From: Squalus acanthias
Lineage: Eukaryota
DNA length: 64,000 bases
Direction: 5' to 3'
NCBI GenBank assembly: GCA_030390025.1
Contig: CM059432.1
Coordinates: forward strand, 98,892,001-98,956,000
The notes under the pieces were generated by a model. That model did no database searches, was not told the DNA's origin, and saw nothing but the letters and a program-made list of their open reading frames with translations. Made by a program: the position numbers and the translations under genes. Within the stretch, counting starts at the first letter, position 1. Each line of letters begins with the position of its first letter. Shown here piece by piece: positions 17,372-55,735 of the stretch.

Positions 17372-18902
17372 TGTAGAATTCGCAATTATCGCGATTTCAT
17401 TTTATTAAGGAGAAAACACAAGTTTCATTCAAAACAGCTTTTATTTCAGCGGAATGCTGTCAGGTTTAAATTGGACACAAGCAGCCTGTAAAATGGCCGC
17501 CGCACCGCGTGACAGAACATTCGAGACTTTTCGGCAGGCAGACAAGATGGCGTTCCAATAAACATTCTTGCAAGATCGATAACGATTCAGCACAGTGAAG
17601 ACATTACACAGGACATTATGGGTTTACAGTATAAACATCGATACTGGGATCGGTCTCCCAGGTACAAAGGAAAGCCATCAAGGGCCCATCCAAAGGACAT
17701 TAATATGTAAACTCCCAACGGCTCTACGATGAGAGAGCCGTTAGCAGGTAGTTATACAGGACACTTGGAAGCCCCAAACCCCTCCAGGGGGAACACCGAC
17801 CGATTTAACAATGGGAGAAGTATTAGCAGGTACTCAAACATTCAGGAGTAGCCCCGAAACCCATTAAGGACAGAGATCACCCATACAGGACATTTTTGGG
17901 CGCCAAACCGTAAACAAAAGAATGGACATTGTAGTTGGGCGGGAAACGGAAGAACTGTGCACTATAATTGCAGGCCCAAACCGTCCATTCGCTCTCTTGC
18001 TCTTGCTCTTGACTCTTGCCGCTTGCTGCTGTTATCATCGTGGCTGCTCCTGTGTTTTATCCGGTCGATTCGTAACCTCGTGGCTGCTCCTGTGTAAAAG
18101 ACTGTTGCAAGGACCTATGTTGGTAGCTGGCAGCGGAACCAAAGGCCCGAGATGAGATGAGATGAGATGAGAGGAGAAGAGAAGAAGACCTTATCCATCG
18201 CCACGGTCAGTAAATCCCGACCGCGCCTGTAGGTCGATCAGCCAAGTCTTCTTGACAACGGTGCTCCACCATACCTTGTATCCAACCAACAGAGGTCTTC
18301 ACTACAGCGGACGGTCCAGCCGACTGACCGAACAGCAAAAGCAGTAAACAAGTGGGACCAGGAGATCTCCTGACCAACACGTGGGTGCTGCGGTGAAAAA
18401 CATCCGATCAGCTATTCGGGATTTCTCCGAGTTATTACGAGTGGTGAGCATGAGTCTCGGGATCCTACGAAGCTAGTTTTAGGATAGTTATTGATAGGGG
18501 AGGGTTTAAAGATTAAGGATATTTGTAATGTGTGCCCTATTTACGTTGTGCTGGTCGTTCCTCGTTTCCCTAAGAGTGATTATAACTGTTTGTAAGATTG
18601 TACTGTCATTAATCTGTGCATATGACATGTATTTCATAATTTTAAGTATCATGCAATAAAGATTTTCCATTTCGTACCGTTCAAACCAAGTCTACATGAG
18701 TTTTATCTCCATTGCTGCTCTCGCATCTAAGTCCAGTGTCTAGAACCGTAAGGGAGAGTGATTCGAACCACTCACAGGGGTGTCTAGTGTTCCCAGACTG
18801 GCTGGAGACCAGGCCTAGACCCGCACTGACATACAGGCTGCACAGAGCCGCGTGAATCTCACAGGCTACGAGACACGCAGGGTCAGGAGAGTATCCCTTA
18901 CA
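17372..18902 (+). repeat. 5' LTR of provirus A (1531 bp)
   Basis: TGTAGAATTC...CCCTTACA; candidate TATA 17963, splice donor 18444, AATAAA 18655-18660. Confidence 0.97.
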
Positions 18903-18906
18903 GAAA

Positions 18907-20718
18907 ATGGCGACCGCGGCAGGACATTGGCAGCGAGAGGGTGGTGTGTTGGACTTTGGAATGACTGTACGAAATGTTATGCAGGAAAAGATAGCGGATT
19001 ACGTATTTGGAAAGGTTAATCTAACGAAAAAGTGGATAAGCGAACTGTTAGCGGATAAGAGCCCACTAGAGGCAGCTGAAAGGTGGACGGATAGTAAGGA
19101 ACATAAAAAGGCAGTTGAGAAAGCAGTCTGGCTTATGTGCTACAAAAGGCAGGTCCAGATTTCAAACCAGACCAATACAGCGCTAACCGCTCGAATCAAG
19201 CAGTTAGAGGAGGAAATGGAGGAGAAGGTTTCTGGAGGGGAGGTGCTCATTAAGAGTTTAAATGAGTTACGCCAGGAAAGCCAGGAAGTCTCCAGTTACC
19301 TTAAAACAAGGGTAGAGTATCTCGAGTGCCAGATCACTGAAGCAAAATTAAACGAGAATAGGATGAAGGAAAGATGTAACCGTCAAGCTGCCCAGATAAG
19401 AACTCAAGAAGAGAGCTTAATGGGGGTTAGGTCGGCGTATAAGTTGGCCCTTGAGGATAAGTTTCAGGGAGCCGACCATAGCGCCTGCGAAAAAGAGATA
19501 GAGAGCCTCAAAAGGGCCGTGAATAATGCGAACGGCATGGTGTGCCTTATTAATCCGTCGGCACGCCAGCCGCTAGTAAATGAGAGATTTAGAAATTCCC
19601 CACCAAGTAAAGCAGAAGAAGTAGTAGCCACTGCGCCCTCCGCGCCACCCAGCTATTCAGAAACCTGGGTTAGGGAGGAAGCAACGGAAGAAGCGAAAGA
19701 GCCCGTTGAAAAAGAGGTAGAAAAGGGATCGTTGTATCCAGTAACGGGGATTAAAAGGGGCCCAAGCAGAAACGGTGGGGAAGAACCGGGGGATCTCCTC
19801 GGACAGCTGGTGTTGCCTCACAGTTCACACCAGCTGAGGGCCATGATAAACCACGTAAGGAAGCTGACCGAGATAGACGACCCTTCCGTACATTTTAGGG
19901 AAGTTGAGCAAGCCGCAGCCATCAACGGCTGCGATGATGGGGAGACAGCAAAAATGCTGCTGTTCTCTTTAGATAGCTCGGTCCTTCAGTGCCTCTCAGG
20001 CGATAGCAAGAGGGGTAATAAAAGTTATGAGGAATTGAAAAATGAGGTCCTAGAAGTAGTGGGAGCGAACGACGGAGGTCCGTTTGCTAGAGTGGGACAG
20101 ACAGTGCAGATGGAGGGAGAACCCCCGAAGGTTTTTGCCGACAGGCTGTGGCCAGTATATGAGCGCAGCTGTCTAGGTGCGCCCGAGCGCGAAGATGTGG
20201 AAGGCGCCGCTTTAATTCATTGGCTTAGGTGCATAATAGCCAACAGTTTACCAGCCGTTAGAGAGCAGGCAAAAGCCTGGTTCGATCCCAATGACCTCAA
20301 CCTTACGGAAGAGTCGGTCTTGAATCGACTCACGTTAGGTTACCGTAACATAAGGGGTGTGGCAACACGTCCCTTTAAGGGAAGAGTACATGAGGTACGA
20401 CCCGCAGCCCCGGCTCAAAGAGAGTGGCATCAGGAGGGTAATCGCGCCCCACAGGCAAGTAATGCCTGTTACGGGTGTGGGAAGACAGGGCACTGGCGCA
20501 AGCACTGCAGGAACCCTTGGAAGGATTCCAAGGATAAAAATCCCGCGGTCCGAACCCAGGCGCCTGTCCCGGCTAAGGAAGCAAAGGCACCCACCTCTCC
20601 CGAAGACCTCGAAGCAGTGTTAGGAGTCATGCGCAAGATGGTTTTGAATGCGCGTGGACAGGTGGCGGTCGCAACCGGCCCCGTAGGTGCCGCAGGACCG
20701 TCTAATAGTACCCAATGA
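18907..20718 (+). CDS. gag: Gag polyprotein, intact 603 aa (coiled-coil, PSAPPSY late motif, capsid-like region, CCHC knuckle)
   Basis: Uninterrupted ORF directly after the LTR; CYGCGKTGHWRKHC; collinear homology with provirus B gag. Confidence 0.92.
   Translation: MATAAGHWQREGGVLDFGMTVRNVMQEKIADYVFGKVNLTKKWISELLADKSPLEAAERWTDSKEHKKAVEKAVWLMCYKRQVQISNQTNTALTARIKQLEEEMEEKVSGGEVLIKSLNELRQESQEVSSYLKTRVEYLECQITEAKLNENRMKERCNRQAAQIRTQEESLMGVRSAYKLALEDKFQGADHSACEKEIESLKRAVNNANGMVCLINPSARQPLVNERFRNSPPSKAEEVVATAPSAPPSYSETWVREEATEEAKEPVEKEVEKGSLYPVTGIKRGPSRNGGEEPGDLLGQLVLPHSSHQLRAMINHVRKLTEIDDPSVHFREVEQAAAINGCDDGETAKMLLFSLDSSVLQCLSGDSKRGNKSYEELKNEVLEVVGANDGGPFARVGQTVQMEGEPPKVFADRLWPVYERSCLGAPEREDVEGAALIHWLRCIIANSLPAVREQAKAWFDPNDLNLTEESVLNRLTLGYRNIRGVATRPFKGRVHEVRPAAPAQREWHQEGNRAPQASNACYGCGKTGHWRKHCRNPWKDSKDKNPAVRTQAPVPAKEAKAPTSPEDLEAVLGVMRKMVLNARGQVAVATGPVGAAGPSNSTQ
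18908..18925 (+). promoter_or_regulatory. Primer binding site, tRNA-Arg(UCG)-like
   Basis: TGGCGACCGCGGCAGGAC lies 5 nt after the LTR and is complementary to ...GUCCUGCCGCGGUCGCCA, the vertebrate tRNA-Arg(UCG) 3' end as recalled. Confidence 0.85.
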
Positions 20719-21918
20719 CTAGAGCCCACGCAGCCTGCCTACCTGTGTCCTTTTAAAAGACACGCACAGGAGGGGGTCTGCGGTGAGGAGGCCAGGTTAA
20801 AAGAGCAGGCCTTGCGGGAGGAGAACGCCCGCTTAATAAGGAAAATAGATGGGCTGGAAGGGCAGCTTAGAGAGCAGGCCCTGCGGGAGGAGAATGCCCG
20901 AGCAATGGGAAAGTTAGACGTGCTCAGGCTAGAAGGGCAGCTTAGAGAGATAAAAGCAGCCTACAGGGTAGCCAGGAGCAGGGAGTATGAGGATTTAAAA
21001 CAGGATAGAAATCTGCAGCCTCCAGCAGGTGAGATTTCACAGAAACAAGCAGGGGCGGTGGCCTGTCTTAAGGGAGGGGCCAGACCTGCGAGTGGGGAAG
21101 CACAGCCCCAGGTAGGACCACAAGGCACACAGGCAGGCGTAGCAGCTTGCATCAGGGGAAGGGACATCCCGGACGATCATGCAGCGTTTTTCTGGAGTTG
21201 GGGGTTAGATGACGAGGACCCCAGGGTACCCTGGTCAGATGAGGATAGTGCAGATGAGCATAGTGATGATGACGGGTGGTTTCACAGGAACGGTCTGGAA
21301 GGATTGGGGCCGCTAGGTAGAGATCCATACGGGGTGGACACACAAGCTGCAGGTCCCGACAGCAGGAGGAGGGAGCTAGAGGAGGCCGGGCCAGCCGCTA
21401 TGTGGTTCCCAGAGGTGTGGCCGCCCGCTGTAAACGTCCAGTCCTCAGGGGAGGCAGAGTTCGCGAGTGAAGGGCCGCCTGCTGGGCCGAGCAGGGCGGG
21501 GCCCCGAACTGCCAGCCCCGAGGTTAGGGAGGCGGAGTCAGCGGAGGCGGGGCTGGCGCCTGTGATGGAACCCCAGGTCATCCCGTTGAAGGTCTCGGGA
21601 CCCGGTCCGTCCGTCACGGAGCCCCCGCCCATAGCAGTTCCCCGTAGGTCAAGCAGAGCACCCCAGCCCAGGAAGACGTGGTCAGGTCCACAGGATGCCC
21701 CAGGGCGTAAGTTTCAGATTAAGATAACCCGGGTAGAGACAGGCCACATCGAAGCAGTAACAGGCTGCGGCAGATCAGAGGAAAGGGTCAGCGCAGCAAC
21801 AGGCTGCGGCAGATCAGAGGAAAGGGTCAGCGCAGCAACAGGCTGCGGCAGATCAGAAGGAAGGGTCAGTGCCCTCCCACCGTCGGGAAGAGCTCGCAGC
21901 AGCCTTCTCAGGATTTAA
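20719..21918 (+). CDS. Pol-slot ORF in frame with gag (probable TGA readthrough): Gag-like coiled-coil plus low-complexity Pol tail; no PR/RT/IN
   Basis: Open from the codon after the gag TGA (LEPTQPAYLCP, matching LEPAQPVYLCS in B) to TAA 21918; three 39-bp repeats near 21755-21870. Confidence 0.7.
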   Translation, partial: LEPTQPAYLCPFKRHAQEGVCGEEARLKEQALREENARLIRKIDGLEGQLREQALREENARAMGKLDVLRLEGQLREIKAAYRVARSREYEDLKQDRNLQPPAGEISQKQAGAVACLKGGARPASGEAQPQVGPQGTQAGVAACIRGRDIPDDHAAFFWSWGLDDEDPRVPWSDEDSADEHSDDDGWFHRNGLEGLGPLGRDPYGVDTQAAGPDSRRRELEEAGPAAMWFPEVWPPAVNVQSSGEAEFASEGPPAGPSRAGPRTASPEVREAESAEAGLAPVMEPQVIPLKVSGPGPSVTEPPPIAVPRRSSRAPQPRKTWSGPQDAPGRKFQIKITRVETGHIEAVTGCGRSEERVSAATGCGRSEERVSAATGCGRSEGRVSALPPSGRARSSLLRI

Positions 21919-22201
21919 AGGGGCCGCCCTGAGAACGGGCGGCATTGTAAAGTTATTAGTTTAAGGTTTTAAGTTTTAGTTTAAAGTTTTAAGTAGTTTT
22001 AATAAGTTTAAGTTTGTAGTGTTTTTAACAGATAACGACAAATGATGGGAGTTTTAAGGCTAGGTTTAGAGGAAGTCTGTTCAGCAAAAGTTGAAGTTTA
22101 CGTGAGGCGAGGTCAGGGGACCCGCTCACCCTTCACAACAGCCAGAGACTTTTTGCGAGGCTGGCTACCTCATTCTATCTGATCACAGGAACCAAGGAAG
22201 G

Positions 22202-24513
22202 ATGGAACGACTCATAGTATTGCTCGTGGCAATCGGATGTGGATTGGCCTATCGGGGCCTCACCAAGGATGTCGTGGTGTTTGGATGTTCCGGGGACACG
22301 GCCCCCATCGCGGTGGATGGGACCGGAAGACGGAAGGCAGAAGGGACCAGCACCTATTTTCACAAGGGAAGGTGGCCAGGATGGCTGGGAACGAACTCAA
22401 CGGAGTATTCCAGCACATCGGGGTTCGCCTACAAAGAGACTTCTTTAATGTGCCCCAAAGTACGGATCATCGCACCCAGGATCAGCGTCACCGTCGGCAA
22501 ACGGATTTGTTTGACTTGCAGTGGGAATGTCCCATTGAGCCGATGGTGGTGGCTGCGAAAGCTGAGCAAAACTATGAGGAACTCTTCGGTTGAGTGGGAG
22601 CGACTGGGTAATAATACCCATCGGACAATTACGGGGACTGATGGACAAGTGAAAGTCTGTTGGGACAAATGGTGGGAACCAGATGAGGGGATTTATGTTT
22701 GTATGTGGGGGTCAAAGTACGTTTGCCCCAAAGGCATCTCCATATTCTTTATTAACCAGTGGCAGGATAACGGACAGGGGATGAGGTGGGATGCGAGCAC
22801 CAGGGGGTGCGGAGCCCCATTCTCCCCGATCCCAGTGAATGCCACTGAGCTCATTACGCGCCCACGCAAAGCCCCGCCCACGATTCCGGTAGTTCTAACT
22901 GAGGAAGAAGGGTGCCCTAAAACTAGTAAGGGACCCGGGAACGGTTTGGTACTGGTCCCCACAGACCAGATACTATTTCAGGGAGTGCATTACGCGGTGG
23001 CCTCGGTGATTTTAAATCTCACTGAGGTACGGTTACCAGAGTGGTGCCCCAAAAAGACGGAACAGTTGTACCAGGTCCTGTTGACCAAGATGTTCAGGCA
23101 GTTTTACGAGTTCGATTTCGCGGAAATTGATAAGACAAGTTTATACACCGCACCGCAGGAAGTTTTGGACCAAGTAGGGAGGCAAAGAAGGGGTTTGGTG
23201 AACGATGCGTTCACTGCTTTTAACACAGGGACATCTGTGGTCAACGCTCTAGACAGTGTGGAGCTGCAGACCCAGATGAGAATAAAGTGGTAGGGTCGGG
23301 TCTGCACGAGGACCAAGCCATGACACTACACTTAAAAGAGATTATAGCAGAGCTGGAGAAACATGCGCGTACGGTAAATGCCCTGATTAGGGAAGATCGG
23401 AATGCATCCGATCAAGCTGCGCAGAACGAGGTGTGCGTGCTTTACGGGGCGTGGTTACTGGGCGAGGGCCGCAGTAATTTGGAGGATTTAAAACAAGGTT
23501 TGGTCCCGTCCTGGATAAGTAACAAACACCTGCGGGCGCTCCACCCTTTTCAGAATGCATTAAGTCCGTGCCAGCTCAGGCTAGCTTCAGAAGCTTACCC
23601 AGTCCCCGTGGACTGCGGACGTTCAAACCATACTATTATGGGAATAGTATTACGCATGCCGGTTTTGGGCAACACAGCAAAGCCCGCCCCGGTGTATCGG
23701 GTAGAGAACATTGGTGTCATTCAGGGGGGAGCCCACATTCGTTATGCAGCGGTTCCACCTTACGTCATCCGCTGGGAGCAAACGATGACAGGTACAGATC
23801 TCTCTGGTTGTCGTGGCAGGGGAGCACACATAATACTGTGCCCCCAGCACTTGAATGCCTTTTTAACACCACAGTGCGGGTTCAGAACGGCTGGCGCCAA
23901 GTCCATGAATTGCACCATGGAGGCAATGGCACAAGATCATGTGCCTCCGCAGGTAGCATACATCGGGGGTGGAACATATTGTGTTACCACTGCAGCGCAA
24001 CACTACCAGCATGGAAACCGTAGCCGGTGTCCGGTGAGTGACAGCAGTTTCTGTTTTAAACCCAGGGCTGAAGTTCAAGTAGCACAACAGCGAATTATCC
24101 CAATCCCTGAACCATCCACTGTTCATCTCACAGTAAAAGAGAATTTCACCGACTTGCAGCGATTTGTCGCACATTTTGGGTACCTCATTCCCCCTCTCCC
24201 CGAGCATTTAACCAAACTTCTGAAAGCCGTCGCGGTGTCACAAAAGCATTTTTATACCTTAGAGCAGAAAACTGTCGAGATAGGTACAGACATTTTGGAC
24301 ATAGTGGTTCCACCGTGGTGGAATCTGTTCACGAATATTGAAGTGCCCTCATGGGTCAGAATAGCCTCCCACATTTTAGTCGTCTGTCAAGTGTTTATTG
24401 TAGTATACCTTTTGTTCATACATTGTAAAAGAGACAAGCGCCTCACCAAGCATGAGAACACGGGAGAGTGGCGAGAACGTTACGTGCGCGTGCACGATGA
24501 GAGCGCAGTGTAA
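22202..24513 (+). pseudogene. env: Env: signal peptide, Ig-like domain and F-type class I fusion protein; one frameshifting deletion at about 23277
   Basis: Hydrophobic N-terminus; Ig pattern; furin site RQRR 23180-23191; heptad repeat; Cys-rich F1-like core; TM ILVVCQVFIVVYLLFI. Split into ORFs 22202-23293 and 23287-24513. Confidence 0.88.
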
Positions 24514-24930
24514 TGGGAAAATGGCGTCACTCCCGCTCGCCACGTGCGCCGCGGAAGTTTGTACTCAGTGTAAATACGTTGGAAACTCGACATGTTTAAG
24601 AGTTGGGATTTGTTTATTTTGGTGATGGTGTTGATTGTTTGGTTTTTTTTGGGTTTTGTTTTTCCTTCCCTTGAATAAAAGATAAATATACAGGTGATGC
24701 GTGAGGTATCGGCCTGGTTACGCCGGGAAGGAAAACAAGTGGTGTAAGTTTAAGGGCAAATGATGCCTACGGTGATATAAAGTGTGATTTGCTTGGGAAA
24801 TAAGGACGACACAGAGACCCTAGTGAAGTTAAAATTTTATGGGATTAATTTACTGGATTCGGAGTGAAATCGAGATAAGATTGCTCACCACTGAGTTTTT
24901 GATACGATAAGCGGAGTTATTCGCATCAAC

Positions 24931-24939
24931 AGGAGGGAC
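24931..24939 (+). promoter_or_regulatory. Polypurine tract of provirus A
   Basis: AGGAGGGAC abuts the 3' LTR; identical to 54028-54036 in B. Confidence 0.8.
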
Positions 24940-26470
24940 TGTAGAATTCGCAATTATCGCGATTTCATTTTATTAAGGAGAAAACACAAGTTTCATTCAA
25001 AACAGCTTTTATTTCAGCGGAATGCTGTCAGGTTTAAATTGGACACAAGCAGCCTGTAAAATGGCCGCCGCACCGCGTGACAGAACATTCGAGACTTTTC
25101 GGCAGGCAGACAAGATGGCGTTCCAATAAACATTCTTGCAAGATCGATAACGATTCAGCACAGTGAAGACATTACACAGGACATTATGGGTTTACAGTAT
25201 AAACATCGATACTGGGATCGGTCTCCCAGGTACAAAGGAAAGCCATCAAGGGCCCATCCAAAGGACATTAATATGTAAACTCCCAACGGCTCTACGATGA
25301 GAGAGCCGTTAGCAGGTAGTTATACAGGACACTTGGAAGCCCCAAACCCCTCCAGGGGGAACACCGACCGATTTAACAATGGGAGAAGTATTAGCAGGTA
25401 CTCAAACATTCAGGAGTAGCCCCGAAACCCATTAAGGACAGAGATCACCCATACAGGACATTTTTGGGCGCCAAACCGTAAACAAAAGAATGGACATTGT
25501 AGTTGGGCGGGAAACGGAAGAACTGTGCACTATAATTGCAGGCCCAAACCGTCCATTCGCTCTCTTGCTCTTGCTCTTGACTCTTGCCGCTTGCTGCTGT
25601 TATCATCGTGGCTGCTCCTGTGTTTTATCCGGTCGATTCGTAACCTCGTGGCTGCTCCTGTGTAAAAGACTGTTGCAAGGACCTATGTTGGTAGCTGGCA
25701 GCGGAACCAAAGGCCCGAGATGAGATGAGATGAGATGAGAGGAGAAGAGAAGAAGACCTTATCCATCGCCACGGTCAGTAAATCCCGACCGCGCCTGTAG
25801 GTCGATCAGCCAAGTCTTCTTGACAACGGTGCTCCACCATACCTTGTATCCAACCAACAGAGGTCTTCACTACAGCGGACGGTCCAGCCGACTGACCGAA
25901 CAGCAAAAGCAGTAAACAAGTGGGACCAGGAGATCTCCTGACCAACACGTGGGTGCTGCGGTGAAAAACATCCGATCAGCTATTCGGGATTTCTCCGAGT
26001 TATTACGAGTGGTGAGCATGAGTCTCGGGATCCTACGAAGCTAGTTTTAGGATAGTTATTGATAGGGGAGGGTTTAAAGATTAAGGATATTTGTAATGTG
26101 TGCCCTATTTACGTTGTGCTGGTCGTTCCTCGTTTCCCTAAGAGTGATTATAACTGTTTGTAAGATTGTACTGTCATTAATCTGTGCATATGACATGTAT
26201 TTCATAATTTTAAGTATCATGCAATAAAGATTTTCCATTTCGTACCGTTCAAACCAAGTCTACATGAGTTTTATCTCCATTGCTGCTCTCGCATCTAAGT
26301 CCAGTGTCTAGAACCGTAAGGGAGAGTGATTCGAACCACTCACAGGGGTGTCTAGTGTTCCCAGACTGGCTGGAGACCAGGCCTAGACCCGCACTGACAT
26401 ACAGGCTGCACAGAGCCGCGTGAATCTCACAGGCTACGAGACACGCAGGGTCAGGAGAGTATCCCTTACA
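24940..26470 (+). repeat. 3' LTR of provirus A (1531 bp)
   Basis: Direct repeat of 17372-18902 at offset 7568; no differences seen by eye. Confidence 0.97.
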
Positions 26471-27900
26471 GAGGTGACAGTGCAGGATCGGGAAGAGAAG
26501 CCATTACAGGTGATTCTATGGTTATGGCTGGAAAGATAGGAATGAAACCAGGCAAGCGCAGTCCCATCCAGCTGGACAACAGTGGAGAGGCATTGGAGCA
26601 GAATTTTGTGGTCAACCGTGTCAAAGGCTGCAGACAGGTCCGGAAGGACTAGAAGGGTAAGCTTATCTTGGTCGCAGTCAATTAGGATGTCATTTGTGAC
26701 CTTGGTAAGAGCAGTTTTGGTACTGTGGTGGGGGCGGAAGCCTGATTGGAGGGATTCAAACAAGGAGTTCTGAGACAGATGGGCACGGATTTGGAGGCAA
26801 CAAAGCATTCAAGAACTTTGGAGAGGAAAGGGAGGTTGGATATAGGACAATAGTTTGCAAGGACAGAGAGGGTCAAGGGTTGTTTTTTTGAGGAGAGGGG
26901 TGATGATGGCAGATTTGAAGGAAAGGGGGACAATACCTGAGGAGAGAGAACCATTAACAATAACATGGGAGCCAGGAAGGGAAGTTGGGTGGTCAGCAAT
27001 TTAGTAGGAATAGGGTCGAGAGAGGAGGTCGGTCTCATTGACAAGATGAGCTTTGAAAGGTCAAGAGGGGAGATAAGAGATAAATTAGAGAAATGTGCAG
27101 ATTTAGGGTTAGGGCGGGGGGGAAATGGAAAGGATGTAAGGTCTGGTAGGCTAGGGAGAGGGAGGGAGTAGCAGAGGCAGTTGAACAGATGTTGTCGATC
27201 TTTTTAACAAAGAAGTCCATGAGCTCCTCATATTATAGTTGGAGGTGAGGGAGGAGGAGGCAGGGGAGGGTGGTTTGAGAAGATGGTTAGTGGTGGAGAA
27301 GAGAAGCCTGGTGTTATTTTTGCTGTCCAGGATGATCTTAGAATAGTGAGCGGTTTTAGTGATGGAGAGCAGGACCCGGTAGTGCTTTATATTATCTAGC
27401 CAAATCTGGTAATTGATGATTAGACCAGTTGTCCGTCAAAGACATTCAAGTCTGCGTCCCTTGCATTTAAGGGAGTGGAGATGAGGGGTATACCGGGGGG
27501 AATGACTAGGGTGAGAGAGTGCAATGATTTTAGTGGGGACAAAGGCATCAAAGGTGGTGGAGAGGGTGTGATTTACTAAGAAAGTAGCTGCAGAAATGTC
27601 ATGCAGAATTGTAGGCCAAAGGCTAGATAGTTACGAATTCGAAAGTGAAGTGGTAAGGGACTTGAGGGAGAGTTTTTTCCAGGGGTAGATACGAAAAGAA
27701 GTGGGGTTAGGAGGGGGAAGTGGAATATGTGTAGAGAGTGATAGAAAGAAATGGTCAGAGACTGTCTTATCAGTGATGGTTACGGAGGGGATAGCGAGGC
27801 CACGTGAGATGATAAGATCAAGGGGTGGCTGTGTATATGGGTGGGGAAGTTTACATTAAGGGAGAGATTAATGGAGGAAATGAGGGCAGTGAATCTGAGG
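26471..27900 (-). mobile_element. L2 LINE 5' part (continuation of 16310-17371)
   Basis: [10 protein letters not shown]...[11 protein letters not shown]...SCTVTS joins GVPQGS across the provirus. Confidence 0.9.
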
Positions 27901-40700: not shown

Positions 40701-40714
40701 GTTTTTTTTAATCT

Positions 40715-44647: not shown

Positions 44648-46040
44648 TGTGCCTATCCTGCCAATGGATTTGCAGGATCTTGCGGAGGCAGCGTTGGTGG
44701 TACCTCTCCAGTGCTTTGAGGTGCCCGCTGTACATGGTCCATGTCTCTGAAGCATACAGGAGGGCGGGTATCACTGCTGGTCTGTCGACCATGAGCTTGG
44801 TGCTGGGTTTGAGGTCCTGGTCTTCAAACACTCTCTTCCTCAGGTGACTGAAGGCTGCACTGGCACACTGAAGGCGGTGTTGGACTTCGTCATCGACATC
44901 TGCCCTTGTTGACAGTAGGCTCCCGAGGTATGGAAAGTTGTCCACGTTGTCCAAGGCCTCGTCATGGATTTTGATAATCAGGGAGCAGTACTGTGTGGCG
45001 GGGGCGGGTTGGTAGAGGACCTTTGTTTTACAGATGTTTAGTGTAAGGCCCATGCTCTCGTACACTTCGGTGAAGGTGTTGACGATGGTTTGGATTTTGA
45101 CCTCAGAGTGTGCGCCGACGCAAGCATCGTCTGCATAATCTAATTCGATGACAGAGGATGGGACGACCTTGGATCTGGACTGGAGGCGACGGAGGTTGAA
45201 CAGTTTCCTGTTTGTTCTGTAGATTAGCTCCACTCCAGCGGGGAGCTTACTGAGGATGAGATGGAGCATTGCAGCCAGGAAGATCGAGAAGAGCGTTGGT
45301 GCGATGACACAGCCTTGCTTGACCCTGGTCCATATGTGAATTGGGTCTGTGCTGAATTCGTTGGTCAGGATTACGTCTTGCATGTCGTCGTGAAGCAGGC
45401 AGAGGATGGTGACAAACTTTTGAGGGCAGCCGAATTTGAGGAGGACACTCAATAATCCCTCAAGGTTGATGGTGTCGAAGGCCTTTGTGAGTTCAAAGAA
45501 GGCCATGTACAGCGGTTGGTGCTGTTCCCTGCATTTCTCTTGTAGCTGATGCACGGTGAAGATCATGTCCATTGTGCCCCTTAGTGGGCAGAATCTGCAT
45601 TGCGACTCTGGGAGGAGCTCTTCAGCCACTGGGAGAAGGTGATTGAGGAGGATTCTTGCGATGACTTTCCCTGTGGCAGACAGCAGGGAGACTGCTCTGT
45701 AATTACCGCAATCGGACTTGTCACCTTTCTTGAAGATGGTCATGATTACGGCATCTCTGAGATCCCCTGGCATACTCGCCTCCTTCCAGATAAGAGAAAT
45801 GAGTTCATGTATTCACGCCAATAGTGCTTCTCCACCATGTTTTAGTGCCTCGGCAGGGATTCCATCTGCTCCTGAGGTCTTGTTGTTCTTCAGTTGTCGG
45901 ATGGCCTTTTCAACCTCATGCCGGGCTGGGGTTGTGCTGAGGTGGTGGCGGGTAGCATGCTGCAGGATGGAGTTGAGGACACTCGCGTCGAAAACAGAGT
46001 CTCGGTTAAGGAGATCTTAGAAGTGCTCCTTCCAGCAGGA
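44648..46040 (-). mobile_element. RTE LINE reverse-transcriptase region, inverted relative to the adjacent 5' part
   Basis: CGNYRAVSLL, KAFDTIN, VKQGCVIAPTLF, LDYADD, FPYLGS. Confidence 0.9.
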
Positions 46041-46646
46041 GCCAGAAATTATACTGTGTGTCTCCCCAGCACGCCTTTGACTATTAGCAGAATGGCAGCT
46101 AGATAATCCCATTCAATAAGCAGGAAGTAATCTATATACCATGAGTAAACTTCATCAATTCTGCAACAACAGCATGTTTCATATCATCACATCTTTATGT
46201 GTTACAATTTCCACCTTTGGTAATTGCTGTTTTCTGAGAGGATAAAATGAGACTAAAATGCTGATACGGGCATCAAAGCCTGAAATATCTGCTCTTGCAA
46301 AATAAAGGGATACAGTTTTAACCGCAACACAAGAGTGAGAATATTCACAACCCTACAGCCCTCCATAATGAATATTTGTGTAGCAATAACAGGCTGTGCA
46401 CTGATACATTAAATTGTTTATGCAAGACATATTGGTTGAATTTAAAACCATAATAAAACACAATTGTGCACTTCCAGCTTTTCCTACCTAGAAACTGTGC
46501 AAGTTTTCCCTCATAAGCCTTTTTGGGGCAACATAAACTATACTGGTTTCTCTGAAAAATTAATCTGAAGGCAAAATTGTTAGGGCGATGCAGAAAGAGC
46601 AGGGGAGTGCAACTAATAGGATAGCTCTTTCAAAGAGCCGGGACAG

Positions 46647-48344
46647 TGTAAGGATTCCAAAATTTACAGATCCCCAAAACCTAAGGATAAAGGACTTTGG
46701 AACTACCTCAGAGTGATAAAAATGCATTTGGGCCTAACCTAAGGAATTTAAGACCAGAAACCAAGTTTTGGCATTATAAAAACATGTCTGGGCCTGTAAA
46801 AGGAGAAAAGGCTGTGAAGGAAGTTGGGTTCGACCTCTGTAAAAGCAGTTTTGGTTATTGCAGTTAATTGCACTGTCTGGGGACCGGGATGACCCTACTC
46901 AAGCCCCAGCAGGCATTAACATTTTGACAATAGACCCTAGGAGAAGACAGTCCCACCCAAAACAACAGGTCCCATCAAACCGATTACAGGGCCCATCAGG
47001 AAAAATGCATAATACAAATCACCCAGGACCAGGCTATAGAAAAGACTGAGTCCAGCCTAGAAACCCAAAACATGAAACCAATCACCAGTGATCAGCCAAG
47101 GAGATCGACAGGATGCAAACCATCCCAAAACCCATTTGACACTTACAGAGCAGTTTCTGGTAGCAGGCCCGCCAAATTCAGACAATGAACTGAGCAGATT
47201 TGGCGGGTAGATAAGGCCATGTTCAATGGGTGAGATTGAAGGCCTGTTAAAACCCAGTTAACGTGCTAGTAAGTCATTACCAATTTAAGAGCCCGTCAAA
47301 ACTAGACAATGAACCGAGTAGATTTGGCGGGTAGATAAGGCCACTTCAATTCTGTATAATTGAAGGCCCACCAAGCACACACGAGAGAGACAACACAGTT
47401 CAAGGTCATTGGGTCGAGCAGTCAGTCGCAACCGATGGTCATCAGAAGGAGAAGAGACCAAGAAGAAGAAGGCCCGAGCTGGAAGCGAGTCGGCATCGCT
47501 CACCACTCAGACACACCTGAGTCCAGCTCGCGAAGACACCACCTCGACGGACCTCCAACAACGGCCCCAACACAGTCACCCAGAGCAACAAGCAGCAACA
47601 AGTCACCGACGGCTCCACGAGGTCGACCGACACACAAAACAAGGCCTAAAGCCATCGCGGAAACCAAAGGCCTCACGAAACCAACAACCGCACATTACCC
47701 CCAACTGACCGGGTAATAGCAGGCCACCGCGACCAACAAAGACCAACTCCAGGGAAGAAAACCCGAAGAATCGCAAAGTTTCCACACCACAAACTACTCC
47801 TGACTTACCCCTGGGTAGGATTTTCCCCAAAGACTCTAAACCCTACTGCTAAACTAAAGAAATTGGGTACTCACCAGATAAATCCAAAACGACATCCTAC
47901 CGCATCAGCGGACTCGCGAAGACTGACCAGAGACCCAGGAGAAGTCCTCTACCGTGTACGGGGTACGGCAGACACTAATCGCCATAAACAACGAACCCCA
48001 AAACCGCGATTTAGCCCAACTGTCAAAGGATTGGTGAGCATTATCCCTGGTCCTTCAAAACCTAACTTAGCTAGTAAAGTGGGGTTGGGAGGGTTGAAGT
48101 ATTGTTCTACTGTCATTTCCCTCGCTTGTACCGAAGTGTTCCCCACCTTTAGAGTGATAAGAGTGTTATTATTTGTATCTTACCTTTTAATAAAGATTGA
48201 AGTTCTTTCATCAAACTCAGTTGTCTGCTGCACCTTTTGTATCACAACCCCCAATTAAGTCCATGGTCCAGAACCATGGGAGTGGGAGCAATTCGAACCG
48301 CTCAGAAGTCAGAGGTAAAGTTGACACAAACCACCACCCCTACA
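46647..48344 (+). repeat. 5' LTR of provirus B (1698 bp)
   Basis: TGTAAGG...CCCTACA; TATAAT 47355, donor 48034, AATAAA 48189-48194. Confidence 0.96.
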
Positions 48345-48346
48345 GA

Positions 48347-50107
48347 ATGGTGACCGCGGCAGGACCGCGGCAAAAGGGATGTGATGCAGTGGACACTGTT
48401 TTTGAAGAGAGAACCAAGATGGAGGAACGGATTTCCTCCTATGTGTTCGAAAAGGTGAACATAACTAAGAAATGGGTACTCAGTCAGCTAAGTGGATTGA
48501 GAGCAAAGACCACAGGAAATCTGTGGAAAAGATACAACTATTGGACAAACGTGTAGAGACACTCAAAGCAGAACTGCAGGATTCTGCTCAGCTGTATCAA
48601 ATAAGGGCCCTAGCAGGGGAAACATTATTGAATGAACTAACAGCCTGAGATCAGGAAAGGAGGCAGTTAGTGGAAGCACACAGGAACAGTCAAGAGTATT
48701 TTCAGTGTCAGATCACCGAAGCAAAAACCAGTGAACTAGTGTTGAGGGATGAGAACACCTGCCTTGCCAGGCAAGTAAAGGAACTAGAGGAGAGGTTAAG
48801 AGATGTCCAGGCAGCTTACAAGGTAGCAAGCACAAGGGGGTATGAAGCCGGAGAGCACGGCCCCTGCCAGAAACAAATCGAAAGTTTGAACATTGCTCTG
48901 TCTAGAGCCAAAGGCATGGTGTGCCTGTTAAGCCCGGGTACGGCCCGGGTGGACCTGGAAGTGCAAGTGGAAACTGTTCGGACGCCACCTGTGGCGCCGG
49001 GGAATGACCCGGTTGGGCAGCAGGAGGGAAGGGCGATTTGTGAGGCTGGCAGGGAGTGCACACCACCACCTGTGGCGCCAGGTTTTAACTCGGTTTGGCA
49101 GCAGGCAGGGGTGGGCAAACCAATGCAGGAAAGGTTGGAGCCGGGGCCAATGTGCCCGGTTCCGGCAGCAAAAGTTTGGCCCACCTGGGGGTGGTGGGGG
49201 TCAAGGACCCCTTGAAAGCCAATTTGTGGCTCCCCACGGTACCCAACAGCTTAGGGCTATGATAAGTCACCTGGGTAAGCTCACTCAAGAAGGGGACCCC
49301 TCAGTCCACTTCATGGAAGTGGAACAGGCAGCGGGCATCAACGACTGTGATGATGCCGAGATGGCAAAAATGCTCCTGTTCTCCCTAGACAGTAAAATCT
49401 ACCAGTCCCTCTCCGCAGAGAGTAAAAGAGGGCAGGGTGGATATGCTGCCATCCGAGAGGGAGTTCTGGAGGCCATGGGAATGAACGATGGTAGTCCCTT
49501 CTCCTGGGTGGAGAAGACTACACAGCTAGTAGGGGAGACCCCACACGCTTTCGCAGACCGACTGTGGCCTGTGTACAGGAGTGCCTGTAATGGGGTTCTC
49601 GACCGGGATCGCCTGAATCAGGACGAGCTGGCCCACTGGCTCCGAAGCCTAGTGGCAAACAGCTTGCCACGGATCAGGGCCAAGGCTGAGCTGTGGTTTG
49701 ACCCGAAAGACCCCCGGGTCACCGAGGAGACAGTGGTCAGACAACTGACCCTGGCTTACCGGAACGGTAGAGGGACAGAAGAGCACCCACCTAAGGGAAA
49801 GGTACACGAAATAAGGCCTGGTAAAAGGAAAGAGTGGCACCAGGAAGGGGGTAACCCTTCTGACACGAAGCGTATCTGTTTTGGGTGCGGGAAGAGTGGA
49901 CATTGGAGAAAAGACTGTAGGAACCCGTGGAAGGGTAACCTAGGAAAGAATTCCCCAGCCCCTGCCCCAAAGGTATAAACCCCGACCTCTCCCCACACGT
50001 TAGATTCGGTCGTGGCTGCGATCCGAGCTCTAGTAAACGGCCCAGGGAGAGTAGCCACCGCCACTGGTGCTCTAAACCCATCTGCCCCCCCTAACACAGA
50101 CTTATGA
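48347..50107 (+). pseudogene. gag: gag (frameshifts, premature stops)
   Basis: YVFEKVNITKKW, DPSVHFMEVEQAAGINDCDD, FADRLWPVY, CFGCGKSGHWRKDC; the ancestral stop is TGA 50105-50107. Confidence 0.9.
48348..48365 (+). promoter_or_regulatory. Primer binding site (tRNA-Arg-like)
   Basis: TGGTGACCGCGGCAGGAC, one C>T change from the PBS of A. Confidence 0.82.
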
Positions 50108-51205
50108 CTAGAACCAGCGCAGCCTGTCTACCTGTGTTCCCCGGAATACGATGGTAAGATGGGGGTGGAGACGGTGCAGGGGAGACATTTGGTGGACACC
50201 GGAGCTTCCAGCATGGTGGTCCATTCGGAAGACCCGACCAATTCACCCAGGTCTAACCAGGTCCCATTTCGCCTAATGGGGTTCACAGGGAACGAGCAGG
50301 CTGGGGCAATGTCCAAACCTTTGGACATAGATTTAGGATCCCTTCATACCACGTGAGAGGGTAACCAGAAGACCGACAAGTTGGCCAAGCAGGGGGCCAG
50401 GGAAGGAGAGTTCTGGGATCCCTATAAAGCTTTGCCCCCGGACTTAAAGCAGGTCCAAGCCCAGGATCCCGTCCTTAAGGCCATCCTGGTAAAGAGAGAG
50501 AATGGGGAGTCCATAGAAGGTCCGTTCAGGGCAGCGGACGAGATTTTAAAACAGATTCACTGGCAAGCAGCCAGTAACCTGGGGAGCCAACACCAGAAAA
50601 ATCGTCTGCTGTTAGAACCTCAGAGAACCCACGAGTGGGAGATTAACCAATGCAAGCTGTTTAAACCCGAGAAAAGGGAACAGTCAGCAAAGGTGGACCA
50701 CCCCAAAGTTAGAAATCCCCAGCCAGCAGCTGTGGCAGACGCACAGGCTGCAGCGGTGGGGACAGTGGCTTGTATCACAGGAGGGTACACTCCACCGATT
50801 ATGTGGGACTCAGGCACACCCCCAGTGGCCAGAGTCCTGAGAAGGTCTCCTCGCACACCACAGCCTAAACTGCCGTGGTCACCGATACATCAATGGGTCA
50901 GCCCAAAAGGGGCTGCAACCCAAAAAGGAGTGCCCAAGGCCAGGGAGCGTTCAAAGGTTAGGGATCCCCAGCCTGCAGCCTCAGGCTGCAAGGAACCCAC
51001 AGGACAGGACAGGTACTCAGCAGCCACACCAAAGGGGGCAGTGTGCTGTAGCACAGGAGGGGACACTCCCGGGATTGTCAGGGATTCAGGGAAACCCTCA
51101 GTTGTTTTAAGAAGGACTCTCAGGGTCCTGCGGTACAGGCCACCTTACACCCAGGCGTACAGGCTGCTCAGAAGCTGCCCAAGAGAGAGGCCATACAGGG
51201 ATTGA
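50108..51205 (+). pseudogene. pol: Internally deleted pol: protease N-terminal half, RNase H end, integrase-flanking pieces, tail
   Basis: HLVDTGAS; EGNQKTDKLAKQGA; DLKQVQAQDP. All in the gag frame, with a single TGA at 50354. Confidence 0.8.
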
Positions 51206-51418
51206 CCTGGCTGTCCGGAGACGGGCGGCGAATGTACAGAGTTTTAGTAATTTTAGGTGTTTAACAGTTTGGTAGTTTTAGGATTTTTAAGGATTCTAGT
51301 TTTAAGGATTTTAGTAAATAAGCTTAAAAGATCTCAAGAATTGATCACCTGTCCAGCCTGAGAACCTTCTCGGGACATGGTTGTCTGTTTTGTGTGTCCC
51401 TACAGAGAGGAAATCGGC

Positions 51419-53747
51419 ATGACCAGGGTTCTGCTCCTGCTCGCCCTGGTAGGGGTGAGCATCGGTGACCGAGGTGACGTGGAGGACTCCCACATCTATG
51501 AGTGCTCGGGAGAGAGAGCACCGGTCGTCACCGCAGGGGGTGGCGAACGGGGAGTGGAGGAGCTCGCCATCTACTTCCACGAGGGAAGGTGGCCAGGGTG
51601 GCTGGGGTACACCTCCACAAAATACTCCAGCCAGACCGGGTTCACGTACGGGAAGGCCTCCCTCCCATGCCCCAGAGTACAGGTCGTTGCCACAAGGGTC
51701 AGTGTCACCGAGGGGAAGCGTGTGTGCCTTACCTGTAAGGGACGAATTCCCCTGAATAGGTGGTGGTGGCTCAGGAAGCTGAGCAGAGATGCAGGGGACC
51801 ATACAGCCGACTGGGAACGACTAGGGAACGACACCTACCGGACAATCACAGGGACCCATGGGGGAGTGAGTGTGTGTTGGGATAAGTGGTGGGAGTCGGA
51901 ACAGGGAGTCTATGTTTGTATGTGGGGGTCAGAGAAAGGCTGCCCCACAGGCATATCCATCATCTTCTCCAGGCAATGGCAAGATGCCAGGGAGGGGATG
52001 GGGTGGGATTCTAGCCTACATGTGTGCGCGCTCCCACACTCCCCGACCCCAGTCAACGCCACCGAACTAGTAGCCCGCCCCCGAAAGCCCCTGCCCGCGA
52101 CCACGACCTCACGGACAGTAGAGGAGAGGTGTCCTACCACCACCAAGGGACCAGAGAATGGACTAGTCATAGTACCGACCGAAAAGGTACTGTACCAGGG
52201 GGTACACTATGCAGTAGCTTCAGTAATATTAACACTTACCTAAATGGTGTCCTAAGGAGACAGAACAGCTATACCAGGCCCTGCTAAAGGAAATGTTTAG
52301 AAAATTTTATGAATTCGATTTTGCCAACGTGGACAAAGCAGAACCGAACAGATTACACCCTGAGCGCACCATGGGCGCAGGGAGACAAAGAAGGGGGACC
52401 TGGAACAATATTTTCACAACATATAATACAGGATCCTCAGTAATAAATAGCCTAGATGACATAGAGCTACAAACACAGATAAATGGTTTAAAAACCCAGT
52501 TGAGGAAGATCCTAACGGATGGGAACACAGTGGTAGGCTCAGAGCTACACGAGGACCAAGCTATGATGGTCCATCTAAAAGAGATTATTGCTGAGCTAGA
52601 GAGACATGCTAAAACAGTGAATGCACTCATACGGGAGTTCAGGAATGCTTTGGATCAGGCTGCACAGAATGAGGTGTGTGTGCTATATGGGGCATGGTTG
52701 CTGGGCGAGGGCCGCAACAACCTGGAGGATTTAAGACAAGATTTAGTCCCCTCCTGGATTAGCAACAAACACCTCGCAGCCCTCCACCCATTCAGCAATT
52801 CACTGAGCCCGTGTCAGCTCCGCCTAGCCTCTGAAGCCTACCCAGTCCCAGTAGATTGTGGACGTTCCAATCACTCTATCATGGGGATAGTAGTGAAGAT
52901 ACCGGTCATGGGTGGGACAGCCCGTCCCACACCGGTATACAGGGTGGAGAACATTGGGATCATTCAAGGGGGTGCACACGTCCGTTTCGCAGAGGTCCCA
53001 CCTTATGTCATAAAGTGGGAGCACGCTATGACAGGTACTGACCTCTCCGGGTACCGGAGCCGGGGTTCACACATAATATTGTGTCCCCAGCACTTGAACG
53101 CCTACTCTAAACCACAGTGCGGGTTTAAAGCTGCTGGCGCATGACCTATCAACTGTACCATGGAGGTAATGGCACAAGGCCATGTTCCCCCACAGGTAGC
53201 ATTCATAGGGGGTGGGACATATTGTGTCACCACAAGTGTGCCCCACTACCAGCATGGACAGCATTTCTGGTGTCCGGTAAGTGACAGCAGTTTCTGCTTT
53301 AAACCCGAGGCAGAAGTTCACGTGGCCCAGGAACGGATTGTCCCCATTCCTGAACCCTCAACTGTTCACCTAACTGTAAGGGAAAACATTACCAACCTGC
53401 AAAACTATGTCACCTTCTTCGGCTATAAAATTCCTCCTCTACCCGAACACCTTACCGTCTTACTAAAAGATGTACAGGCATCACAAAAGCATTTCTACAC
53501 CCTAGAACAAAAGACACTCGAGATAGGGGCTGAGATTTCGGCCATCACGGTTCCACCCTGGTGGGACATTTTTGAAAATGTAGAGGTTCCTTCTTGGATT
53601 AGGATGGCCTCACACATCTTAGTGGTTTGCCAGCTCGGGATAGTCTTGTACTTACTGTGTACAAAGTGCAAGGGGAAGGACAGAATGCTCCATTCCCGAC
53701 ATGAGAAAGCCTGGGAAAAACATTACAATAAAGTTTACCAAGTATAA
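51419..53747 (+). pseudogene. env: env (Ig-like domain plus F-type fusion protein), frameshift at about 52240 and stop at 53142
   Basis: Collinear with env of A: signal MTRVLLLLALVG, RQRR, TM HILVVCQLGIVLYLLC. Confidence 0.88.
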
Positions 53748-54036
53748 AACAAGCCTGAATCAATTCTAAAAATAAAGAAGTTTTGTGATCGTGTATTATT
53801 TTTACTATGTATGCACTGTGTCTTCCAAGTGGTGCAGGGGTGTTGGACCCACTCCGTGCTTGGATATGAATGTAATTGAATTCTTACCTGTATGTATTGG
53901 AATACTACACCAAAAAGGGGAATGTATGTTTTTGGGTTTTAGTCTAGGTAATAGAGGGGAAGGTTGGGTTTCGAGGATCAGGAATTTTGTCCTCCCAGGA
54001 CGATACTGTAGTGAATTAAAGTATCGCAGGAGGGAC

Positions 54037-55735
54037 TGTAAGGTTTCCAAAATTTACAGATCCCCAAAACCTAAGGATAAATGACTTTGGAACTACCTCA
54101 GAGTGATAAAAATGCATTTGGGCCTAACCTAAGGAATTTAAGACCAGAAACCAAGTTTTGGAATTATAAAAACATGTCTGGGCCTGTAAAGGGAGAAAAG
54201 ACTGTGAAGGAAGTTGGGTTCGACCTCTGTAAAAGCAGTTTTTGTTATTACAGTTAATTGCACTGTCTTGGGACCGGGATGACCCTACTCAAGCCCCAGC
54301 AAGCATTAACATTTTGACAATAGACCCTAGGAGAAGACAGTCCCACCCAAAACAACAGGTCCCATCAAACCGATTACAAGTCCCATCAGGAAACATGCAT
54401 AATACAAATCACCCAGGACCAGGCTATAGAAAATACTGAGTCCAGCCTAGAAACCCAAAACACGAAACCAATCACCAGTGATCAGCCAAGGAGATCGACA
54501 GGATGCAAACCATCCCAAAACCCATTTGACACTTACAGAGCAGTTTCTGGTAGCAGGCCCGCCAAATTCAGACAATGAACTGAGCAGATTTGGCGGGTAG
54601 ATAAGGCCATGTTCAATGGATGAGATTGAAGGCCTGTTAAAACCCAGTTAACGTGCTAGTAAGTCGTTACCGATTTAAGAGCCCGTCAAAACTAGACAAT
54701 GAACCGAGTAGATTTGGCGGGTAGATAAGGCCACTTCAATTCTGTATAATTGAAGGCCCACCAAGCACACACGAGAGAGACAACACAGTTCAAGGTCGTT
54801 GGGTCGAGCAGTCAGTCGCAACCGGTGGTCATCAGAAGGAGAAGAGACCAAGAAGAAGAAGGCCCGAGCTGGAAGCGAGTCGGCATCGCTCACCACTCAG
54901 ACACACCTGAGTCCAGCTCGCGAAGACACCACCTCGACAGACCTCCAACAATGGCCCCAACACGGTCACCCAGAGCAACAAGCAGCAACAAGTCACCGAC
55001 GGCTCCACGAGGTCGACCGGCACACAAAACAAGGCCTAAAGCCATCGCGGAAACCAAAGGCCTCACGAAACCAACAACCGCGCATTACCCCCATCTGACG
55101 GGGTAATAGCAGGCCACCGCAACCAACAAAGACCAACTCCAGGGAAGAAAACCTGAAGAATCGCAAAGTTTCCACACTACAAACTATTCCTGACTTACCC
55201 CTGGGTAAGATTTTCCCCAAAGACTCTAAGCCCTACTGCTAAACTAAAGAAATTGGGTACTCACCAGATAAATCCAAAACGACATCCTACCGCATCAGCG
55301 GACTCGCGAAGACTGACCAGCAACCCAGGAGAAGTCCTCTACCGCGTACGGGGTACGGCAGACACTAACCGCCATAAACAGCGAACCCCAAAACCGCGAT
55401 TTAGCCCAACTGTCAAAGGATTGGTGAGCATTATCCCTGGTGATTCAAAACCTAGCTTAGCTAGTAAAGTGGGGTTGGGAGGGGTGAAGTATTGTTCTAC
55501 TGTCATTTCCCTCGCTTGTACCGAAGTGTTCCCCACCTTTACAGTGCTAAGAGTGTTATTATTTATGTCTTACCTTTTAATAAAGATTGAAGTTCTTTCA
55601 TCAAACTCAGTTGTCTGCTGCACCTTTTGTATCACAACCCCCAAATAAGTCCAAGGTCTAGAACCAAGGGAGTGAGAGCGATTCGAACCGCTCAGAGGTC
55701 ATAGGTAAAGCTGACACAAACCACCACCCCCTACA
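54037..55735 (+). repeat. 3' LTR of provirus B (1699 bp)
   Basis: Direct repeat of 46647-48344 with about 55 differences counted by eye; preceded by PPT AGGAGGGAC. Confidence 0.96.

Follow-up and report, generated by a model that had tools for sequence, protein, structure and literature searches.

Pol-less endogenous retroviruses with gag and env, and their pol-bearing sister families, in the genome of Squalus acanthias

Retroelement families that keep gag and env without pol are already known, and so are pairs of defective and competent endogenous retroviruses (ERVs) that recombine with each other; chicken EAV-HP, for example, is pol-deleted with gag and env kept, its dependence on a helper being confirmed in the literature. 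Here we analyze two such elements, A and B, in a window of 64,000 nucleotides from Squalus acanthias (GenBank assembly GCA_030390025.1, contig CM059432.1, positions 98,892,001 to 98,956,000; window positions count from the first letter of this stretch), and set them beside the closest described systems. The Athila elements of Arabidopsis likewise combine long terminal repeats (LTRs) with gag and env-like frames without pol, are multi-copy, show purifying selection on both frames and recombine with pol-bearing kin (PMC2410132). They differ in being plant Ty3/gypsy elements whose Env is unproven in an entry role. The present elements belong to a vertebrate retrovirus; a class I fusion Env is predicted for them, the two pol-loss junctions have 1,210 and 394 genomic matches, and the cognate helper is near-identical. 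The C and D forms of ERVK[2-1-LTR] in cattle, like recKoRV/KoRV, ETn/MusD and IAP I-delta-1 cited in the same report, resemble A and B in a central swap with flanks kept, and in the bovine case co-packaging was shown by four-gamete tests, with mobilisation in trans (PMC10924933). The bovine D-type, however, has no intact open reading frames and only portions of gag and env, whereas the A-type copies described here have the whole gag open in eight of eight cases and a full-span env. The zebrafish BHIKHARI families Bik-1 and Bik-2 are, as here, young and pol-less, with an intact coiled-coil Gag and the need of a partner for reverse transcriptase (RT) and integrase (IN); they differ in having Gag only and no env, tens of proviral copies and a relationship to lokiretroviruses, and their partner is not identified (bioRxiv 10.1101/2024.03.25.586437). 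In the literature outside subscription journals and Repbase we found no report of the present lineage, or of a vertebrate retrovirus family with whole gag and env and without pol at such copy number; the families may already carry Repbase names. We do not regard A and B as a novel type of system, or as a satellite lineage of lokiretroviruses.

With high probability, A and B belong to two non-autonomous morphs that arose separately in two sister ERV families and that are mobilised by, and recombine with, pol-bearing helpers. Both pol-loss junctions are amplified in the genome at independent insertion sites, cognate pol-bearing families are present, and pol-less and helper copies share alleles. 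Element A (17372-26470; 9,099 bp) lies, like B, on the forward strand and is flanked by a 4-bp target-site duplication (TSD), GAGG (17368..17371 and 26471-26474). Comparison of the window with itself revealed its paired LTRs (17372..18902 and 24940..26470), which have TG...CA ends, span 1,531 bp each and are identical. The 18-nt primer-binding site (PBS; 18908..18925) overlaps with gag's first ATG, and the polypurine tract (PPT) CAGGAGGGAC (24930..24939) directly precedes the 3' LTR. The gag frame (18907..20718) is open, encodes 603 amino acids with an N-terminal coiled coil, a capsid-like region and one CCHC knuckle, and ends in TGA-CTAG. Behind this stop, in frame, stand about ten first codons of the protease (20719..20750), a 334-bp segment in place of pol (20751..21084), which carries a partly duplicated piece of the Gag coiled coil, and an IN C-terminal tail (21085..21918), which is common to A-type helpers and ends a 399-codon open frame begun after the gag stop. 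The env gene (22202..24513) specifies a signal peptide, an Ig-like head, an RQRR site, an F-like ectodomain and a membrane anchor, and is frameshifted near 23,270-23,290 in the window copy.

Element B (46647-55735; 9,089 bp) is flanked by the 4-bp TSD ACAG (46643..46646 and 55736-55739) and has LTRs of about 1,700 bp (46647..48344 and 54037..55735) that are 96.8% identical, with a Kimura two-parameter distance of 0.033. Its PBS (48348..48365) is 18 nt long with one mismatch, and the same PPT, CAGGAGGGAC (54027..54036), again directly precedes the 3' LTR. The gag gene (48347..50107) is broken by two frame changes and two stops and likewise ends in TGA-CTAG. The pol remnant (50108..50642) joins, in frame, a protease start, an RNase H end with linker and a late integrase piece, and is followed by an IN C-terminal tail (50643..51205) that is about 93-95% identical to B-type helpers. 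The env gene (51419..53747) is full-span, with one frame change and one stop. Thus A and B each have a complete set of cis signals (LTR pair, PBS, PPT and TSD) without an RT or integrase core, and a tblastn search of the whole window with the full helper Pol found no RT or integrase core, matching only the protease start and the RNase H end of B. The original prediction, made from this DNA alone, had described two complete integrants of about 9.1 kb devoid of these cores, and this description stands. Its statement that both keep gag and a full-span env holds for the span and fails for intactness, the env of A being frameshifted and both genes of B broken, so that no copy in the window has both intact. 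Similarly, the view of pol loss as a deletion is right in that the pol core is gone, but A is not a plain deletion: a foreign segment has been substituted and the integrase tail retained in frame.

The primer sites of A and B match a tRNA-Arg(TCG) gene of the same genome at its 3' end. The pattern for this tRNA end has 429 matches in the genome, and the one locus examined was identified by ARAGORN as tRNA-Arg(TCG). Long tandem arrays of 1,623-bp period at C26:38.99-42.2 Mb also contain this tRNA end. As predicted, the LTRs of A and B align only in short blocks, one of 49 bp (76%) and two of 16-17 bp; Gag proteins are about 41-52% identical at the amino acid level and env DNA is 67-75% identical. 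The GNxxxDxLAKxGA piece of B, correctly recognized as a retroviral-type RNase H end, corresponds to the terminal part of the helper Pol's second RNase H.

A 31-base pattern placed on the 5' pol-loss junction of A, with up to 3 mismatches allowed (<=3), has 1,210 matches in the genome, compared to 0 for a control. Among the matches listed, the internal region of A is present end to end at 24 of 26 places, namely A and 23 others at 97-98% identity (25 of 7,513 candidates were scored). All eight A-type copies compared have different flanks, with TSDs of 4 bp in six and 3 bp in two, and their LTR pairs are 99.85-100% identical. For B, the protease-RNase H junction has 394 genome matches, all 40 scored matches (B itself plus 39 others, 83-90%) cover the junction region, the junctions are common to 13 of 13 other copies examined, and both B-type copies inspected for flanks have their own. 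Both structures are therefore multi-copy and independently inserted, which is the outcome that the prediction of shared junctions with different TSDs had called for. Decay of single copies after insertion, or an assembly artefact, is accordingly very hard to credit: B itself did decay in place, as its LTR distance and broken genes attest, but the junction matches lie on many contigs with different TSDs, and a contig from another public run spans the whole A insert with 1 difference in 464 bases. B's own LTR distance suggests an earlier wave for B than for A. Pol-less A-type matches also occur at a spacing of about 7.7 kb (C1:143656041-143673437 and C1:204985239-204995065), as tandem proviruses that probably share LTRs, and B-type RT matches cluster at C6:46.8-47.2 Mb; such arrays inflate pattern counts.

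Pol-bearing relatives were found for both types. For the A-type gag end, 2,378 pattern matches were counted, roughly double the number for the junction; subtracting the junctions leaves about 1,170 helper matches. Helpers were sampled as loci with the gag end and without the junction; an exact negation pattern gave a single match, because helpers differ from A within the anchor. Such loci encode protease, RT, tether, RNase H and IN, in this order, in six of six cases and are stop-free over the 3.3 kb examined in five of six; in further loci of this kind the protease start is present in 6/6, and an integrase end followed by env in 5/5. On the first 231 Mb of contig C1, env lies 5.1-5.3 kb from the gag end in 58 of the 92 exact gag-end matches and less than 3 kb away in 31, the remaining 3 having no exact env match. 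The pol-less genome is about 3.3 kb shorter than that of the helper. Helper gag is 93-98% identical in nucleotides to the gag of A, while sharing of the LTR between A and the A-type helpers was seen over about 65 bases only. Some A-type helpers are themselves damaged: 3 of 5 have a broken env and 1 of 6 a broken gag. The B-type RT pattern has 329 matches, RT was confirmed in all three B-type relatives examined, and the RT-bearing relatives are 87-93% identical to B in LTR, gag and env nucleotides. The Pol proteins of A-type and B-type helpers share 81% of their amino acids, and in both families the abundance of pol-less copies and helpers is near 1:1. With amplified junctions and cognate pol-bearing families in the same genome, the prediction that A and B are non-autonomous and must borrow Pol is supported. 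By these sequence comparisons, each pol-less family is sister to its own pol-bearing family and closer to it than to the other pol-less family, so that the pol-less architecture arose twice, the first of two alternatives that had been put forward, and the single satellite lineage proposed alongside it is not supported.

The segments that replaced pol bear on the same question. The closest relative of both is a third family, here called C-type, with 79-81% identity (to its gag) for the A insert and 82-88% nucleotide identity (to its pol) for the B remnant, the latter compared to 67% amino acid identity with B-type helper Pol. In the genome, protease follows the C-type pattern in 24 of 27 matches; two copies were examined and RT is absent in one of them. 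One C-type element, at C12:92472650-92479250, contains gag, protease, integrase and env without RT or RNase H and is possibly a third defective morph. At the integrase motif NQCK the remnant of B gives way to sequence of B-type (95%), and divergent A-type pol-less copies rejoin the helper sequence at NQCK in four of five cases, the fifth having one residue changed. It could be proposed that a single old pol-less ancestor, perhaps C-type, was re-dressed with A-type and B-type flanks, and both the common third relative and the common rejoining point would be compatible with this. We consider such a history improbable. The two replacement segments have no sequence in common, that of A deriving from gag and that of B from pol, and their 5' junctions differ; gag, env and LTR track the cognate helper in each family; and a conserved block preceding a variable tail is where a switch between diverged families is to be expected. 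A central segment has likewise been exchanged for a piece of another retroelement in bovine C/D, recKoRV and ETn (PMC10924933).

The 399-codon frame behind the A gag stop is open in 12 of 13 A-type pol-less copies. A conserved protein product was considered and rejected, as the ratio of non-synonymous to synonymous polymorphism (pN/pS) is 0.90 in the insert (13 copies) and above 1 in the integrase tail. Selection on the open frame alone is possible, although 4 of 14 B-type copies have the same frameshift in the corresponding pol remnant. The first gag ATG overlaps the primer-binding site (18907-18925 and 48347-48365) in A, B and the helpers alike, the start of a skate homologue matches it, and a second conserved Met lies 24 codons into the frame; with so short a leader, a packaging signal could not fit ahead of gag. 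The TGA-CTAG stop is kept in A, B and the A-type helper and would represent a read-through context. Foamy viruses express pol separately from gag. At and after the gag stop, 36 bases (20716-20750 and 50105-50140) are 89-94% identical between A-type and B-type copies, compared to only about 63% for gag DNA, which suggests a recoding signal.

The prediction had also assumed that pol-less copies supply particle and entry proteins, and had named a dN/dS near 1 among them as the result that would speak against it. Among the eight pol-less copies closest to A, synonymous variants outnumber non-synonymous ones by 34 to 19 in gag (pN/pS 0.16) and by 50 to 10 in env (pN/pS 0.06), both ratios being far below 1. 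Nevertheless, these low ratios do not decide whether selection acts in the pol-less copies, because recombination with helpers can import alleles already purified there, and they are therefore no proof that the copies supply anything. Polymorphic sites of pol-less copies recur in helpers at 30 of 52 sites in gag (6 helpers) and 25 of 61 in env (4 helpers); gag has no fixed difference between pol-less copies and helpers, and some helper gags are 0.8% from a pol-less copy, nearer than pol-less copies are to each other. Over 1 kb of env in 13 pol-less copies and 4 helpers, all four combinations of allele and pol status occur at 40 of 82 informative sites; the tree of these sequences needs three changes of pol status, two of them forced by strong branches, and the same A junction is found on env haplotypes up to 12% apart. 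In the reading favored below, the loss of pol is comparable to a defective-interfering allele whose frequency in a recombining swarm is about 50%.

The same data can be read as a cooperative division of labour, in which pol-less proviruses would be selected for working Gag and Env, half of the genomes serving as donors of structural proteins in what would amount to a two-genome virus, an idea also raised by the Athila authors (PMC2410132). We hold this to be possible but doubtful. The low ratios, shared by private variants, the near 1:1 abundance in both families and the open gag in eight of eight copies are what it would lead one to expect, and env is present at the A junction loci as an exact match in 33 of 42 and in all five examined of the other nine. 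The mostly synonymous private variants, the presence of env and the occurrence of frame breaks in env but not in gag count against pure passivity. On the other hand, sharing of alleles with helpers suffices to explain the low ratios, env is broken in five of eight young copies (compared to none of eight for gag; p=0.058 against gag and 0.017 against gag with the following frame), and helpers have their own Gag and Env and no evident need for donors. For B-type loci, one in-frame env stop is present at 6 of 12, pol-less and pol-bearing alike, a pattern in which inheritance and repeated mutation are indistinguishable.

We favor, instead, mobilisation by helpers combined with continual recombination. 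In each family, the middle of pol was exchanged for a short C-type-like segment, with LTRs, primer site, gag, integrase tail, env and polypurine tract retained. As in retrovirus biology generally, helper Gag-Pol would arise by read-through of the TGA-CTAG stop, pol-less RNA would be co-packaged with helper RNA in particles containing helper Gag-Pol, and helper RT and IN would copy and integrate it in trans, a step to which the recombination points. Through template switching, the pol-less cassette would keep being transferred to whichever haplotypes of gag and env are current, and the shorter genome may be copied or packaged more readily. Since Env works on the particle surface it could be provided in trans, and we think it rather likely that env is retained mainly through recombination while being complemented in this way. 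For Gag the balance tips slightly towards an additional role in aiding its own RNA in cis, and such partial action in cis would account for the open state of gag.

Several observations weigh against helper mobilisation with recombination as just set out, or limit the strength with which it can be stated. Variants private to the pol-less copies also have a low pN/pS, 0.15 in gag (13 synonymous, 7 non-synonymous) and 0.08 in env (23 and 6), which fits direct selection in the pol-less line and, equally, helper alleles outside the sample. That sample is small, with 13 A-type pol-less copies, eight of them chosen for likeness to A, and 4-6 helpers per gene, and recurrent mutation at mutable sites can raise four-gamete counts. 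The number of A-type helpers is a difference between two pattern counts, and the A-type env pattern (window 22643-22673) has 3,583 matches, an excess of about 1,200 over the A-type gag ends; there may be additional families with A-type env but a different gag end. Finally, co-packaging, read-through and expression are deductions from genome sequence.

The two families record, in nature and on a very large scale, helper and defective retrovirus genomes near parity, a state that arose twice in sister families; the record is also very young, with LTR pairs of 99.85-100% identity. Since one assembly contains about 1,200 A-type copies of either form, selection, be it cis preference or cooperation, can be set computationally against recombinational refreshment of gag and env. 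The record also demonstrates that low dN/dS among defective copies, the usual test, can be confounded by recombination with a helper.

The original prediction placed A and B among the relatives of lokiretroviruses, on account of an Env resembling F proteins of the Mononegavirales. When the Gag and Env frames of the window were themselves compared to Pfam and PDB sequences, no Env family was found and the CCHC, protease and Ig matches were weak, and a search for Gag homologues found one protein, from skate, at 51%. For Env, 49 homologues were found, with the cleavage site RQRR at residue 327. An AlphaFold2 model based on a 37-row alignment reached a mean predicted local distance difference test (pLDDT) score of 74.5, a single-sequence model being unusable (pLDDT 33). 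The top Foldseek matches of the model are the F proteins of human parainfluenza virus 3 and respiratory syncytial virus (E 1e-11 to 1e-10, template modelling score about 0.4), and an Atlas comparison gave 0.93 to PF00523 clusters, while a Pfam search of Env gave no direct PF00523 match. Env is thus predicted to have a paramyxovirus-F-like fold, as had been proposed. Compared to PDB sequences, the Env profile has as its two best, weak matches the 'Envelope glycoprotein gp130' entries 8rm1 (E 0.004) and 8rm0 (E 0.023), and it aligns to the Env of a snakehead-type viral contig with an hhalign probability of 88% (E 3e-6, 286 columns), the contig being identified by an RT that matches a supplement row labelled SnRV in PMC7947760. 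The start of Env (22202-22750) looks Ig-like, with weak Pfam Ig_3 matches and a V-set match in one homologue, and the Env start of the snakehead-type contig looks similar. Foamy virus Env also has a paramyxovirus/pneumovirus F core, but its receptor domain is inserted between the subunits, whereas here the Ig-like domain precedes the F core (PMC11468914). Because snakehead retrovirus and foamy virus share it, an F-like Env is not a marker of lokiretroviruses. Its presence on the canonical retrovirus side, in homologues of the snakehead Env, weakens the view of separate envelope sources for canonical retroviruses and lokiretroviruses, as set out in PMC9040795.

Descent from lokiretroviruses would make these elements the first in cartilaginous fish, none being reported from the cartilaginous fish genomes screened in PMC7947760. 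Like lokiretroviruses, the present elements have a tether and RNase H, an F-like Env with a furin site (RxRR) and an aquatic vertebrate host, and a coiled-coil Gag may be added to the resemblances. The dual RNase H of the helper Pol (Pfam PF17917/PF17919, then PF00075) is, however, common to all retroviruses. The helper RT motif is LPQGFHNSP, whereas the Loki rows of the PMC7947760 supplement have PFGY(A/S)NSP at least 69 times and LPQGFHNSP 0 times among the 300 of 318 pages covered; the former motif was read off the supplement rather than taken from a published definition, and Loki rows were recognized by it, not by label. In three trees the Loki-motif RTs form their own clade apart from the helper (support 99-100), and helpers group with Retroviridae (orthoretrovirus, class III and snakehead lineages) with a Shimodaira-Hasegawa-like approximate likelihood ratio (SH-aLRT) support of 98 on RT and 99 on RT, tether and IN combined. 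These were quick trees without bootstrap or foamy rows, built from 45 RT rows out of 108 and from 50 rows of the combined regions. When helpers and Loki-type rows are constrained to group, the cost is 23 log units on RT, where the approximately unbiased (AU) test does not reject the grouping (p=0.088), and 48 on the combined regions (AU p=0.024). In comparisons with three Loki-type INs, helper IN reaches 169-202 bits, more than the 131 bits against snakehead retrovirus; in the full pairwise ranking amphibian elements come first, then class-I-like and Loki-type INs, then snakehead retrovirus. The three most specific Loki Env motifs tried were found in none of the 49 Env homologues, and the lokiretroviral smc gene is absent here. 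Taken together, the RT motif and the trees lead us to drop the lokiretrovirus membership of the original prediction, and we regard descent from that group as unlikely.

The helper lineage is best described, on present alignments, as an unclassified one on the Retroviridae side, near amphibian and coelacanth elements and apart from Loki-type RTs. Its nearest Pol relatives are amphibian and coelacanth elements with 45-54% RT identity; among the 115 relatives collected, the best is a contig protein at 82%, with amphibian, coelacanth and other elements at 41-50%. Snakehead retrovirus (clade Huo, CmiERV lineage I) resembles the present elements in having gag and pol in one frame split by a stop, a CCHC Gag and a homologous Env, according to PMC6001957 and PMC4422223, and its RT is of the same LPQG type (43.5% identity). 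It differs in a TAG stop instead of TGA-CTAG, in a much longer leader before gag and in its tree position, which is not with the helper in either tree (a fork without resolution on RT, a split by a branch of 97 on RT, tether and IN), and similarity between the two Gags is weak (probability 35%). Class III elements are reported to be the majority among ERVs of cartilaginous fish (PMC11089739). ERV4 membership was considered and rejected: ERV4 is described in PMC4299795 as having a 5-bp TSD and no Gag zinc finger, and here the TSD is 4 bp, sometimes 3 bp, with one CCHC knuckle. A bolder and, in our judgement, speculative extension would be that pol loss arose repeatedly and settled near half of the genomes since short genomes stay useful through a working Gag and fusogenic Env; the result would be a two-genome entity written some 2,400 times into one germ line, and the F-type Env would then be ancestral for retroviruses rather than a gain of lokiretroviruses only.

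The remainder of the window contains other repeats. A long interspersed element (LINE) copy hosts A (16310-17371 and 26473-27871), and kindred LINE pieces are present at 6282-7434 and 10154-11712. A B-type solo LTR on the reverse strand (56614..57922; 85-87% identical to the B LTR, TSD ATGA) is inserted in a LINE copy, a relative of which lies at 44133-45812. At 3731-4530, an array of 52 copies of a 15-bp unit has several frames open, with a Ser/Pro/Ala-rich repeat. Two further open frames, at 32775-34234 and 36273-36854, resemble what we take to be a Harbinger-type accessory (Myb/SANT-adjacent) protein, and short inverted-repeat elements with arms 96% identical (43422-44067 and 63220-63431) are probably miniature DNA transposons.

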